Shown: positions 25,420 to 28,657 of the stretch, piece after piece
How the letters are laid out: every line of letters starts with the position of its first letter
Numbering within the stretch: position 1 is the first letter of the stretch
From: a bacterium
GTDB lineage: Bacteria; Vulcanimicrobiota; JAZDOK01
Length of the DNA stretch: 64,000 bases
Direction of reading: 5' to 3'
Assembly: GCA_043798715.1 (NCBI GenBank)
Contig: JAZDOK010000001.1
Span: forward strand, 6,480-70,479
Position numbers and translations under genes: made by a program
The notes under the pieces: generated by a model
The model's input: only the letters and a program-made list of their open reading frames with translations
Databases searched by the model: none
What the model was told of the DNA's origin: nothing

Positions 25420-26967
25420 ATGAAGATTATCAATAAATATTTTTTTCTATACATTGCTCTCTTGATTTCCCTTTTTCTTCCCGCTCCCGCATTTTCAAAG
25501 GAAACAGCAAAGAAAACCCTGGCGGTCAACAACCTCTCCAATATTTCCGGGGACCACGGTTCGGATTATCTCGGCGTGGCCCTGGCGGAATCCATTTCCT
25601 CCCGTCTCGGCAATCTGAGCGGCATCATCCTGGTGGAAAGAAGCCAGCTCACTTCCCTGCTCAAGGAATTGAAACTGAATCTCACCGGAGTCGTGAGCAA
25701 ATCCGCCGCTCTCCAGGTGGGGCAGATGAGCGGCGCTTCATATTTGCTCCTGGGGAGCTACGAGAAACAGGGAGACATGCTCGCCGTGAATCTCAGGCTG
25801 GTGAACACGGCGACGGGGGAAGTAGCCCTGGCCGTGAGGGAACAGGAAAAAAACAGGGATCTGCTGGAAGAAAAACTTTTTACCCGCCTGGCCAAGTACC
25901 TCCAGATGGATGTAAAAGACACGAAGTCTTTGACGTCCATAAATGAAGCCGCCCGCAAGGATTTCGAGGAAGGATTGCTGTCCTTGCAGAGAGAGCAATA
26001 CGAGACGGCTTTTTCAAGTTTCTGCGCGGCTTCCGAAAAGGATCCTTTAAATCTTCAGATTCACCGAAAAATCGAGGAAGCGGCAAAGCTGGGAAAGCTG
26101 GAAGAAAAATTCCTGAACAGATACTCCGGCTTGGCTGCAAAAAACCCCGATTCCGCCATATTTCATAATTATCTTGGGAATGCCTATCTGCTTCTGGATC
26201 TCAAGGATACGGGAGGCAAGGCTCAATTTGAGTATGAACAATCACTTAAATGCGATAAGAACTTCGCCCCGCCTTATAACAACCTGGCCATCATCCTCTC
26301 CAGATGCGGGAAATTCAAAGAGGCCGGGGAAAAAATGCAAAAATACACGGAACTAAAGCCCGGGGACCCCTTCGGCTATGTCAACAGATCGCTCATCGAG
26401 GTGGCGTCTCTCAAGCGGGAAGGAAGTAATAAGCTGAAGGAGCGAAAATCCGACATCGAGAGCCTCTACAAAAAGGCGCTTGAGCTCGATCCCCTGTGCG
26501 GCCCCGCTTTCCGGGGGCTGGCCTCATATTATTCCGCCATCGGGCTTGATTCCGAAGCCCTCGGCCTGTATCAGGCATATCTTAAGATAAACCCTGAAGA
26601 TGAAAAAATTAAAAAGCGCGCGGCCGAACTTTCACAAAAGTCGGGAGGCGTTGAAACGGAACCTCAGGAAGAACTGATCACCCGGGCCGGAGGCGATATG
26701 TCCGTCCTGCGCCAGGCCTCTCCCATGAAATTCTATGCGGCTGCTCTTTCTTCCATTAAGGAAAACAGGCTGGAAGATGCGCTAGTGCTGTGTAAAGAGG
26801 CCCTGGCTCTTCAACCGGACAATGGATTCGGCCTGACAATCCTCGGGAAAATATATCTGGCTCTCAACAGGCCTGACGAGGCGAAAGCGGCGCTTGAAGA
26901 AGCCGTTAAATCAGCTTCGAACCCTCTGGCCGAAGAGCTTTTATCCACACTCCTAAAGAAGCAATAA
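25420..26967 (+). CDS. secreted protein with N-terminal TolB_N/CsgG-like domain followed by TPR repeats
   Basis: Signal peptide (…PAPAFS|KE). Residues ~30-150 fit the TolB-N-like pattern (LAVNNLSNISGD…DYLGVALAESISSRL…ILVERSQL…LGSYEKQGDMLAVNLRLVNTATGEV). The C-terminal half is TPR-like (NYLGNAYLL…, ILGKIYLAL…). Confidence 0.6.
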   Translation: MKIINKYFFLYIALLISLFLPAPAFSKETAKKTLAVNNLSNISGDHGSDYLGVALAESISSRLGNLSGIILVERSQLTSLLKELKLNLTGVVSKSAALQVGQMSGASYLLLGSYEKQGDMLAVNLRLVNTATGEVALAVREQEKNRDLLEEKLFTRLAKYLQMDVKDTKSLTSINEAARKDFEEGLLSLQREQYETAFSSFCAASEKDPLNLQIHRKIEEAAKLGKLEEKFLNRYSGLAAKNPDSAIFHNYLGNAYLLLDLKDTGGKAQFEYEQSLKCDKNFAPPYNNLAIILSRCGKFKEAGEKMQKYTELKPGDPFGYVNRSLIEVASLKREGSNKLKERKSDIESLYKKALELDPLCGPAFRGLASYYSAIGLDSEALGLYQAYLKINPEDEKIKKRAAELSQKSGGVETEPQEELITRAGGDMSVLRQASPMKFYAAALSSIKENRLEDALVLCKEALALQPDNGFGLTILGKIYLALNRPDEAKAALEEAVKSASNPLAEELLSTLLKKQ

Positions 26968-26990
26968 CGCCACAAATTTCCACGGCAGAA

Positions 26991-27024
26991 ATATATCAGC
27001 CCGTGAAGCTGGCGGCTGCCTCAC
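26991..27024. terminator. stem-loop between convergent genes (possible bidirectional terminator)
   Basis: AGCCCGTGA-(14 nt)-TCACGGGCT inverted repeat. Flanking U/A runs are weak. Confidence 0.3.
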
Positions 27025-27055
27025 GGGCTGACACTTGAATACTAAAAAAGTTATT

Positions 27056-28657
27056 TCAGCCGTTTACTTTATGGTAGAGCCACTTGGCGGCCATGGTCCC
27101 GACCACGCCGATGGCCCCTCCAATCGCCAGGAATGGCGCCACCACCGGCACCAGGAACGAGGCGGCGCTCACGGTGGCAAATAAGGCGGTAGTGGCGCTG
27201 AAGGCCTTGTCCGCCTTGGAAACTTCGGGATTCTTGATGTCCTTGGCCGCGGTGTAGATGGCGTCGGCGGCCAGAAGCATGCCCACTCCGGGGATCAGCG
27301 TCTTAAGGACGGCCGAGGTCGTGCCCAGGGCCGCGGTTCTGGCTGCTCCGGTCAGGAGTTTACCGGCGACGGCCGATCCGGCCTCAACCCCGCCAATAAC
27401 CAGCCCGCCTCCGAGGCCCGCCGTCTTGAGGACGGTTCCCAGGGTATCCTTCTTGAAGGACGTCTTGTAATCAGTGACCATCTTCTCCATGGATTCCTTG
27501 AAAGTGAGCTTTGTCTGGGGCGGAAGGTTTTTCTTCTCCGCCTCGACTTTAGCGCGATTCTCGTCGATCATGTAATCCATGAATTTCCCGTATTCCTTCT
27601 GGAAACCCTGGGTCGAGGAAATCAGGTCCTTGCGGGTTCCCGGCTCTCCAAGAGCGGTTGCGGGCATGGAGAGCAGCATATCCAGTTTGGATTGAGCCGC
27701 ATTCAGACCCTCTTTCTTTTCGTATTTTTCAAGATAACTCTTAATCTGGTCCTCGGAGATCGCGCCTTTCTGCACGAGCTGGCCGAAGGCCATCTTGTCT
27801 TCCACTTTTCTCTGGGTCAGCTTCTCAATGCCCTTGAGAACGAGGTATTCGGCGGGCAGAAGCATGGCGAAGACACCGGCGACGAGGCCGGGGGAGATCC
27901 CCGTGTTCCGGGCAATCTGAGCGAAGTCATGACCCTCGGAGGCCGCTTTATTAAGGGCCTCGCCGGTCATCCCGACCGCGGAAAGAGGGTAGATCGTGTT
28001 GGTGAAATGATTGATGGTGGAGGTGGCCATTAAAGTGTAGCCCAATACCGGGTGGTTTTTCCTCAGAGCGAAACCGGCGGCGAAGGAGAGGAGCTGAGGG
28101 GCCTCTATGGCCGCCTGTCCTGCCGCCGCCACGATGGTCAGACCCTTGTTGGTCCCGAGCTGCTTGGCCAGCGGAGTTTCCTTGAGATTGTCGAACTGGG
28201 TTACGCCCGCGGCGCCGTCCTGGTTGACGTCGTAACTGGAGGCAAGCTTTTTCCATGTGTCCCCGGAGGGATCAGCCAGGAAACTCTTCAAGTTATCAAT
28301 TCCGTCAACCTGAACAGTCGTATCCGCGTTGAAAATCGCCTTGGCCGCAGTGGCGTGGGCCTGTTCGTGGACATAGGCCACGGCGCCCAGGGGATCGCTG
28401 GGATACATCATAAAATCGGCTACAATGCCGACCCCGGCCAACATACCACCGATGGTGCCGGCTTTGCCCCCATCATGAGGAGCAAGGTTGGCGGAAAGCG
28501 GACCCGAAATCTCCCTGGAGCTCTTTTCCGAGAGAGTCACCCGGTCAACCGGGGACGGCGTCTGCTTTTCATCAGCAGCCTTCCGCCCTTCGGCGGCGAC
28601 CATCCCTTCCTTAAGCTTCCTGAGCTCGACGGGGCCGAGTTTTCCGATTGCATCCAT
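27056..28657 (-). CDS. hypothetical membrane-associated protein with HExxH motif and Gly/Ala-rich hydrophobic C-terminal segments
   Basis: The start was moved to the ATG at 28655-28657 (MDAIGKL…), which has an aggagg RBS 10 nt upstream. The ORF track's longer N-terminus lacks an RBS. An HEQAH motif lies at ~residue 100. The C-terminal 150 aa contain glycine-zipper-like predicted TM helices (GLGGGLVIGGVEAGSAVAG…, PFLAIGGAIGVVGTMAA). Confidence 0.45.
   Translation of the reverse strand: MDAIGKLGPVELRKLKEGMVAAEGRKAADEKQTPSPVDRVTLSEKSSREISGPLSANLAPHDGGKAGTIGGMLAGVGIVADFMMYPSDPLGAVAYVHEQAHATAAKAIFNADTTVQVDGIDNLKSFLADPSGDTWKKLASSYDVNQDGAAGVTQFDNLKETPLAKQLGTNKGLTIVAAAGQAAIEAPQLLSFAAGFALRKNHPVLGYTLMATSTINHFTNTIYPLSAVGMTGEALNKAASEGHDFAQIARNTGISPGLVAGVFAMLLPAEYLVLKGIEKLTQRKVEDKMAFGQLVQKGAISEDQIKSYLEKYEKKEGLNAAQSKLDMLLSMPATALGEPGTRKDLISSTQGFQKEYGKFMDYMIDENRAKVEAEKKNLPPQTKLTFKESMEKMVTDYKTSFKKDTLGTVLKTAGLGGGLVIGGVEAGSAVAGKLLTGAARTAALGTTSAVLKTLIPGVGMLLAADAIYTAAKDIKNPEVSKADKAFSATTALFATVSAASFLVPVVAPFLAIGGAIGVVGTMAAKWLYHKVNG

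Follow-up and report, generated by a model that had tools for sequence, protein, structure and literature searches.

A TPR protein predicted to partner exported CHAT proteases, and an adjacent HExxH protein, in a Vulcanimicrobiota genome

Genes at the CHAT locus

The DNA considered here is a stretch of 64,000 nucleotides, which we call the window, from contig JAZDOK010000001.1 (assembly GCA_043798715.1) of a Vulcanimicrobiota bacterium. Four large genes found in an open reading frame (ORF) scan lie next to each other in it: two tandem genes for tetratricopeptide repeat (TPR) proteins with a caspase-like CHAT domain (CHAT1 and CHAT2), a gene for a protein of 515 amino acids (aa) that is divergent from CHAT1, and a gene for a 533-aa protein with an HExxH motif that is convergent to the 515-aa gene (Table 1). 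A preliminary description of this DNA had joined all four into a single envelope-associated module. From sequence comparisons we conclude that the TPR module of the 515-aa protein and an exported TPR-CHAT subfamily are a conserved gene pair in which the N-terminal domain of the partner is exchangeable. Judged by its homologues and their neighbours, the 533-aa gene is independent of this pair and stands alone.

Both the 515-aa and the 533-aa gene exist as they had been described. The 515-aa gene starts with ATG, and an internal ATG at 28657 in the ORF at 27056-28747 (minus strand) gives the 533-aa product. Each of the two starts has an AGGAGG ribosome-binding site 7-10 nt on its 5' side, and the same start methionine is used by the homologues. 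The peptide strings quoted in the preliminary description are all present as well, LAVNNLSN, DYLGVALAESISSRL and LAVNLRLVNTATGEV in the 515-aa protein and HEQAH in the 533-aa protein. NCBI names the 515-aa product "FlgO family outer membrane protein", the CHAT product "CHAT domain-containing tetratricopeptide repeat protein" and the 533-aa product "hypothetical protein V2A78_00115" (MFH0800778.1).

Because the 533-aa gene is convergent to the 515-aa gene, we consider it to be a separate transcription unit. Within the divergent intergenic region there was one weak minus-strand match to a sigma-70-like promoter, no better than chance, and the promoter and terminator scans gave matches no more numerous than chance. 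In relatives with 88-91% protein identity (L004-L006 and L008), the whole region from alaS/hisS to a methyltransferase gene is syntenic.

Table 1. Features of the locus; positions are counted from the first letter of the window.
Feature	Position	Strand	Basis
CHAT2, tandem paralogue of CHAT1, 1035 aa	18745..21852	-	Pfam CHAT E 1e-61
CHAT1, exported TPR-CHAT caspase-like protease, 1111 aa	21948..25283	-	Pfam CHAT E 9e-62, TPR_12; His-Cys dyad
Divergent intergenic region between CHAT1 and the 515-aa gene, 136 bp, presumably holding both promoters	25284..25419	.	ORF coordinates and sequence
515-aa exported protein gene: signal peptide, CsgG/FlgO/LpoB (TolB_N-like) domain, TPR module	25420..26967	+	ORF, ribosome-binding site, Pfam, NCBI name
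Sec-type signal peptide MKIINKYFFLYIALLISLFLPAPAFS, no lipobox Cys	25420..25497	+	Translation inspected by eye
TolB_N/CsgG/FlgO/LpoB-like alpha/beta domain, residues 25-150	25492..25869	+	Pfam; aligns with N-domains of P0013, P0017, P0018, P0020
Specific TPR module, residues 153-515, the part kept beside CHAT genes	25876..26964	+	Similarity to L019:8417-9946 and P0009
533-aa HExxH...GHD family gene, putative zinc metallopeptidase-like, membrane-associated	27056..28657	-	ORF, ribosome-binding site, conserved start
Conserved core domain, residues 65-285	27803..28465	-	Column occupancy and conservation; also alone in ~200-250-aa proteins
HEQAH (H97, E98, H101), residues 97-101, predicted zinc-binding and catalytic motif	28355..28369	-	Translation and conservation
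GHD (G242, H243, D244), D244 a candidate third metal ligand	27926..27934	-	Translation and conservation
C-terminal Gly/Ala/Ser/Thr-rich, marginally hydrophobic helical hairpins, residues 405-533, glycine-zipper-like	27059..27445	-	Hydropathy, AlphaFold2 helices

The proposed TPR partner and the exported CHAT proteases

We searched 5.8 billion proteins with the whole 515-aa protein. The only non-self match above 100 bits was P0009 (128 bits, 41% identity, E 1e-31), which has a PF13271 domain (we take this to be DUF4062), a transmembrane helix and a TPR module of the same type as in the 515-aa protein. All other matches had at most 66 bits and are generic TPR similarity. A closer likeness lies beside a CHAT gene. 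P0203, the closest CHAT relative outside the window lineage with a readable neighbourhood, is collinear with CHAT1 over its full length at 37% identity and with CHAT2 at 39%. Directly upstream of it, in the same direction and after a gap of 55 nt, is the gene for a 509-aa protein made of a TIR_2 domain, a transmembrane helix and TPRs (L019:8417-9946). The L019 protein shares 31% identity over 345 aa with residues 153-494 of the window's 515-aa product (E 3e-52, 172 bits), and the similarity of its TPRs is far above that of any other TPR protein in about 100 loci. The histidyl-tRNA synthetases of the window genome and of the L019 genome are 32% identical, so the two genomes are remote and the adjacency of partner and CHAT gene is neither residual nor recent synteny. 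We regard the pair as conserved because a related partner adjoins a CHAT relative in so distant a genome, and this bears out the part of the preliminary description that placed the 515-aa TPR protein with the CHAT genes.

Both members of the pair are predicted to lie outside the cytoplasm. In the L019 protein and in P0009, basic residues precede the transmembrane helix (KPRLPIRKKR and KKHVRK, respectively), and because these flank the helix we place the TPR module of both proteins on the far side of the membrane. The CHAT relatives P0201, P0202 and P0203 begin with signal-peptide or lipobox-like segments. What differs is the head of the partner, which by its sequence is a signal peptide plus a TolB_N-like domain in the window and a cytoplasmic TIR or TIR-like domain plus a transmembrane helix elsewhere. 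A third and looser case of the pair is found in L093 (6562-12046), where the gene next after an exported TPR-CHAT gene encodes a protein of 660 aa. Its N-terminal ~160 aa are cytoplasmic and unannotated, and a transmembrane helix, a TolB_N-like domain and TPRs come after them. L093 also has a second gene of the transmembrane-TolB_N-like-TPR kind at 391-2301.

The signal peptide of the 515-aa protein, MKIINKYFFLYIALLISLFLPAPAFS, is followed by KE at the apparent cleavage point, as judged by manual inspection, and there is no lipobox cysteine in or after it (MKIINKYFFLYIALLISLFLPAPAFSKE). CHAT1 and CHAT2 also have signal-peptide-like N-termini. All three proteins had been described as secreted, and their N-termini agree with this; on these features we assign the 515-aa protein to the periplasm. 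The TolB_N/CsgG-like N-domain followed by TPRs, also part of the preliminary description, holds too. Pfam CsgG (PF03783) matches residues 25-113 at E 1e-9, with 38.5 bits against a cut-off of 20.8, but covers only profile positions 17-97 of 210. Pfam FlgO (PF17680) scores 25.4 bits against 22.6 over profile positions 16-120 of 130, and many Pfam TPR families match residues ~165-510. Three further models stay below their cut-offs: Pfam LpoB (PF13036; 22.0 bits against 22.3), TIGR02722 (17.9 against 110.6) and the NCBIfam CsgG equivalog PRK15184 (14.9 against 505).

Since the N-domain has ~125 aa, under half of the CsgG model, we read it as a module of TolB_N/FlgO/LpoB size and not as the CsgG channel. 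It is an ordinary TolB_N/FlgO-like module. We rejected a CsgG-type secretion pore because the protein has no lipobox and only a partial domain, which ends at about residue 150 and gives way to TPRs. There were no flagellar genes (flgP/flgQ or other) and no penicillin-binding protein (PBP) genes among the ORFs scanned around the locus and the larger ORFs examined in the window.

The CHAT genes are ordinary members of PF12770. Both products have TPR_12 arrays followed by the CHAT domain, and the caspase-type His (in STHG) and Cys (in SACQTG) are invariant in an alignment of 19 CHAT sequences. CHAT1 and CHAT2 are 88% identical over the C-terminal 631 aa, and their TPR arrays are divergent. The tandem duplication is a feature of the window: the close relatives L004-L006 have a single copy, and just one is seen in L008, whose short contig ends inside it. 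The TPR arrays of the two window genes, within 18745-25283, are low in GC (0.43-0.47). Between CHAT2 and alaS there are two small ORFs (17956-18623, minus strand), and close relatives have HTH_17 and PIN genes, a toxin-antitoxin-like pair, at this place.

Around P0203, the island at L019 1-13282 includes three TIR-TPR proteins (one fused to FGE-sulfatase), a RelA_SpoT protein and a NUDIX protein, and it looks like a defence or conflict island. A hisS gene lies no more than 10 kb from the CHAT genes in the window (13925-15208, minus strand) as well as in L019 (21439-22725), which is probably a coincidence. A tblastn search of the PLSDB plasmids with the TPR module gave no match. In the literature on CHAT with CsgG and on periplasmic CHAT we found no description of a partner-TPR/exported-CHAT pairing with swappable heads, and only the paper on the Myxococcus xanthus protein DdvA (PMC11506125) was relevant. 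The specific pairing with exchangeable heads is what is new here.

The 533-aa HExxH family

A word-indexed search with the 533-aa protein gave only 7 relatives. When 1.84 billion representatives were searched with a HMMER profile, at least 217 clusters (formed at 50% identity) matched with E<=1e-3, 49 of them with E<=1e-30. Members come from Elusimicrobiota, Eremiobacterota, Chlamydiales and others, and fall into two size classes, full-length proteins of ~500-680 aa and core-only proteins of ~200-250 aa; the short relatives match profile positions ~150-285 and the HExxH region. A scan of genome contigs for the family found three Elusimicrobiota loci only, and the core had no tblastn match among PLSDB plasmids. 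None of the databases searched has a model for the family, which appears to be uncharacterised.

The preliminary description had allowed that the HExxH of the 533-aa protein could be fortuitous, and this caution can be dropped. In an alignment of 115 sequences, H97 and E98 are conserved in 113 of 114 and H101 in 114 of 115 (~99%), D244 in 108 of ~113 (~96%) and G242 in 101 of ~107. The positions conserved at 90% or more are H97, E98, H101, G151, G180, Y223, D244 and P268. Because the motif is near-invariant across the family, it is a family hallmark and not a chance match, and the 533-aa protein is most likely zinc metallopeptidase-like, as far as conservation can tell. A Chlamydiales subgroup (P0085 and relatives, including a protein from a Chlamydiales metagenome-assembled genome) replaces HExxH by HExxxH (HE[VY]VGH) and shows strong conservation of a GHDFANFA motif. 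Among other short relatives there are hydrophobic N-terminal segments of a bilobed, Inc-like kind.

AlphaFold2 with 115 sequences gave a model with a mean predicted local distance difference test score (pLDDT) of 78, and residues 90-385 were above 90; with 8 sequences the pLDDT was 49 and the model unusable. The first ~65 residues are hydrophilic and have a pLDDT below 50. A hydrophobic helix at 67-84 comes next, ahead of the HExxH helix at 92-109. Two short strands and then long helices lead to the GHD helix (244-252), after which there is a helix of 41 residues that is hydrophobic in its first half. The model ends with a soluble helical domain of ~120 aa and four Gly/Ala-rich helices (405-434, 438-475, 481-499 and 507-532). 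D244 precedes the hydrophobic helix at 256-278. The four last helices fit the glycine-zipper-like hydrophobic C-terminus of the preliminary description, and a Gly/Ala-rich C-terminal region is present in ~60-65% of the members. PDB sequence searches with the 8- and 115-sequence profiles returned only coiled-coil noise. By crude hydropathy the protein has four to seven marginally hydrophobic segments, with Kyte-Doolittle peaks of 1.5-2.3 in four of them and an average of only 0.5 for the HExxH helix. Membrane integration is likely but unproven.

The 533-aa protein had also been said to complete the CHAT locus, and here the neighbourhoods of its homologues speak against the preliminary description. 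At 33-47% identity (tblastn; L001, L002, L007 and L012-L018, readable flanks) we found no CHAT or CsgG-TPR gene near any homologue. The contexts are varied: protein kinase and UvrA-like genes in L001 (Eremiobacterota), PAS and M20 genes in L002 (Elusimicrobiota), CysS and a sigma factor in L014, PHP and hydrogenase genes in L015, and a flagellar hook gene with hypotheticals in L016, while L007, L012, L013 and L018 are short contigs. The only neighbour common to distant loci of the family is the UvrA-like gene, which is ordinary synteny because the two contigs that share it are related. In the other direction, no 533-family gene was found in L019 or in 80 more distant metagenome CHAT loci (L020-L099; 25-36% identity, 827 kb). 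The 533-aa gene and CHAT are co-located only in the relatives at 88-91% identity, where the region is wholly syntenic, and its position beside the pair is lineage-specific. The preliminary description had itself named missing co-occurrence with TPR-CHAT genes in other genomes as grounds for refutation, and for the 533-aa gene that is what we see. Because homologues of the 533-aa gene and CHAT loci do not co-occur, the four-gene envelope module is only half supported: the TPR partner stays with CHAT, and the 533-aa protein drops out.

On its other side, the 533-aa gene is divergent from a gene at 28929-31013 (plus strand) for a PilB/GspE-type secretion ATPase (T2SSE) with an N-terminal response-regulator receiver and an MshEN domain fused to it; this gene is missing at the same position in the relative L008. 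It is followed at 31015-34146 (plus strand) by a DUF6941 gene and then an Eco57I/MmeI-type methyltransferase gene (901 aa), a pair that is syntenic in close relatives. Elsewhere in the window, the extreme AT skew (-0.31) at 10-12 kb is due to a 618-aa ORF without a Pfam match (10207-12063, minus strand). Its product starts with a hydrophilic, low-complexity segment and ends in a (SPTTTT)n repeat; between these are a hydrophobic stretch rich in Gly and Ala and a long coiled coil rich in Q, K and A.

Interpretation and known systems

The reading we favour, with somewhat better than even confidence, is that of two functionally separate genes, one for an exported TPR partner of CHAT and one for an independent zinc-metallopeptidase-like protein. 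The TPR module of the partner would bind the TPR-CHAT protease or proteases in the periplasm as a regulator, adaptor or substrate, and its N-terminal domain would set the output or the location. In the window genome the TolB_N-like head may tether the complex to the outer-membrane/peptidoglycan layer, and the TIR-transmembrane version may pass a periplasmic proteolytic event on to a cytoplasmic TIR effector, by analogy with DdvA. In the 533-aa protein, going by conservation, zinc would be bound, and water activated, by H97, E98 and H101, and D244 would supply the third ligand. The protein would associate with a membrane through its marginally hydrophobic Gly/Ala-rich helices, and the enzyme would act there independently of the CHAT pair.

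Several results weigh against this reading. For the pair, there are only two ortholog-level cases (the window lineage and L019) and one at the level of architecture (L093), in a tally that does not include the contexts of the nearer CHAT relatives P0198, P0200, P0201 and P0202 or of P0009. The gene orientation differs as well, being divergent in the window and co-directional in L019. Only two of the 80 distant CHAT loci (L030 and L093) contain a CsgG_N-like ORF, and on this count we rejected such a gene as a general CHAT neighbour, at least as a family-wide rule. The neighbours found there instead include zf-HC2 anti-sigma-like genes (18 loci), a gene for an unannotated protein of ~335 aa (16), Ser/Thr kinase-PD40 genes (12) and extracytoplasmic function (ECF) sigma factor genes. 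For the 533-aa protein, there is no Pfam, NCBIfam, PADLOC or PDB-sequence match. Foldseek with the full-length model gave a best E of 0.64 against the PDB and 0.099 against BFVD, both with a TM-score of ~0.1, and no site-2 protease was among the 50 best PDB matches listed. Sub-threshold matches to M50-type models lie mostly over the HExxH helix and all stay below the cut-offs (26-27 for M50/M50B), and on the crude Hessa scale the summed values of the helices are all positive, meaning that the helices are only marginally hydrophobic.

The 515-aa protein might instead be an ordinary envelope protein of the FlgO/LpoB/TolB-like-TPR kind with no tie to CHAT, its likeness to the L019 protein coming from a mobile TPR cassette in an architecture that is common and often fused to regulators. 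The NCBI name points this way, as does the scarcity of such neighbours in the distant CHAT loci just mentioned, and proteins that join TolB_N-like domains to TPRs occur in many unrelated settings (such as P0013 in L009, with no CHAT nearby, and a winged-helix fusion in L030). We find this possible but doubtful, because the TPR module is not generic: it reaches 172 bits with the L019 protein and 128 with P0009, and at most 66 with the other TPR proteins found. The two members of the pair are both exported and are kept together across genomes whose histidyl-tRNA synthetases are as dissimilar as noted above, and the ORFs scanned nearby include no flagellar or PBP genes. For the 533-aa protein the main alternative, which we think unlikely, is a family of secreted or translocated effectors that are soluble when made, insert into a target membrane through the Gly/Ala-rich hairpins and use HExxH on foreign substrates. 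Its hydrophilic, poorly predicted N-terminus would suit this, and so would helices with Hessa sums of only +2 to +5.6, a bilobed hydrophobic C-terminal segment at residues 485-528, the polar N-termini of the Chlamydiales subgroup and the Inc-like segments of some short relatives, as well as a gene that stands alone in varied contexts. Against it, no secretion-system genes are linked to the family, the 533-aa protein of the window has no signal peptide, the Elusimicrobiota and Eremiobacterota members come from metagenome-assembled genomes of free-living organisms, and the weak profile hints point to intramembrane proteases.

We give little credence to the four-gene module, in which the 533-aa protein would be a membrane effector activated by CHAT or a site-2-type metalloprotease that acts after CHAT cleavage in a cascade of regulated intramembrane proteolysis. 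It has in its favour that the four genes are neighbours in the window as well as in the relatives at 88-91% identity, that the HExxH is genuine with weak M50-like hints, that the HExxH domain would face the periplasm in one possible topology, and that DdvA has been proposed to use CHAT as a site-1 protease followed by the M50 protease RseP (PMC11506125). However, homologues of the 533-aa gene at 47% identity or less have no CHAT or CsgG-TPR gene nearby, the family is absent from L019 and the 80 other CHAT loci, the gene is in a separate transcription unit, and the 515-aa partner in the window has no transmembrane helix for a site-2 protease to cut. A broader model is a long shot to us as well. 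It would be a modular periplasmic surveillance system in which an envelope insult is sensed and CHAT cleaves or remodels the partner TPR; the TIR-transmembrane-TPR versions would free or activate a TIR effector by regulated intramembrane proteolysis (DdvA-like, leading to cell suicide), the window version would have its TolB_N-like outer-membrane/peptidoglycan tether, and the M50-like HExxH protein would be recruited as a lineage-specific membrane protease or effector.

Under the reading with two separate genes, each gene has its own interest. Periplasmic caspase-like (CHAT) proteases are almost unstudied, and a pair with swapped TIR-transmembrane and TolB_N-like heads makes a testable hypothesis of what CHAT binds or cleaves and of how it is wired to different outputs. 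The 533-aa family is sizeable, with an invariant zinc-protease motif and a confidently predicted fold that has no solved relative, and it is worth considering as a new Pfam family and as a target for structural and enzymatic work.

Among known enzymes, the 533-aa family can be compared with the site-2 protease clan (M50, M50B-like, DUF3267 and NF041824). In both, HExxH stands at the start of a helix after a hydrophobic helix and is followed by short beta-strands. The 533 family also has a conserved Asp ~145 residues downstream, just before another hydrophobic helix, which is a candidate counterpart of the third zinc ligand of the clan. Members of the family give recurrent weak matches to exactly these models: of 79 members, seven match Peptidase_M50B (PF13398; best E 4.8e-4, scores of 12-18.6 bits where the cut-off is 26), three match Peptidase_M50 (PF02163), and one each matches DUF3267 and the daptide intramembrane metalloprotease (NF041824), all below the curated cut-offs. 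However, the window protein itself has no match to the M50/M50B profiles even at E<=10, and there is no Foldseek similarity to solved site-2 proteases. The M50B-like family has a comparable layout, with HExGH followed by a Gly-rich strand and an SDA..L...TG.P motif. The motifs differ, being LDG or SDA in the clan and GHDF in the 533 family. The 533-aa protein also has the extra soluble helical domain of ~120 aa and the Gly/Ala-rich C-terminal hairpins, and its helices are much less hydrophobic. Any kinship of the family with the M50 clan is very distant at best.

The N-terminal ~125 aa of the 515-aa protein match models of the FlgO/LpoB/CsgG/TolB kind at or near their cut-offs, and all of these are periplasmic or outer-membrane-associated alpha/beta domains. 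CsgG and LpoB are lipoproteins, whereas the 515-aa protein has no lipobox Cys, and the channel-forming part of CsgG is absent from it. The 515-aa gene has no flagellar, curli or PBP context, in contrast to FlgO, CsgG and LpoB, and its N-domain is fused to the CHAT-associated TPR module.

The TPR-CHAT architecture is shared with Craspase (type III-E CRISPR; Csx29 TPR-CHAT, Cas7-11 and the substrate Csx30), as is, if the favoured reading holds, a protease controlled by a bound partner that cleaves a neighbouring gene product. Craspase, however, is cytoplasmic and RNA-guided, whereas the window proteins carry signal peptides. We rejected a Craspase/CRISPR assignment, as the NCBIfam Csx29 model (NF041237) scores 24.8 bits against a cut-off of 300. 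There were no cas genes among the ORFs scanned near the locus and no Rfam RNA family in the window; no dedicated search for CRISPR repeats was made.

The closest precedent, by analogy, is the Myxococcus xanthus anti-sigma factor DdvA, whose periplasmic TPR-CHAT part has been proposed to detect a protein associated with phage and to work before RseP as a site-1-like protease (PMC11506125). In both systems a caspase-like TPR-CHAT module with a His-Cys dyad is located in the periplasm, as far as the signal peptides of the window proteins indicate. Some distant relatives of the window CHAT are flanked by zf-HC2 anti-sigma-like and ECF sigma genes, which resembles a split DdvA/DdvS arrangement. The TPR-CHAT protein of the window differs in being a free exported protein with a signal peptide only, with no zf-HC2 match, transmembrane anchor or nearby ECF sigma gene. 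It also differs in being paired with a separate TPR protein, whose head is TolB_N-like here and TIR-transmembrane in L019.

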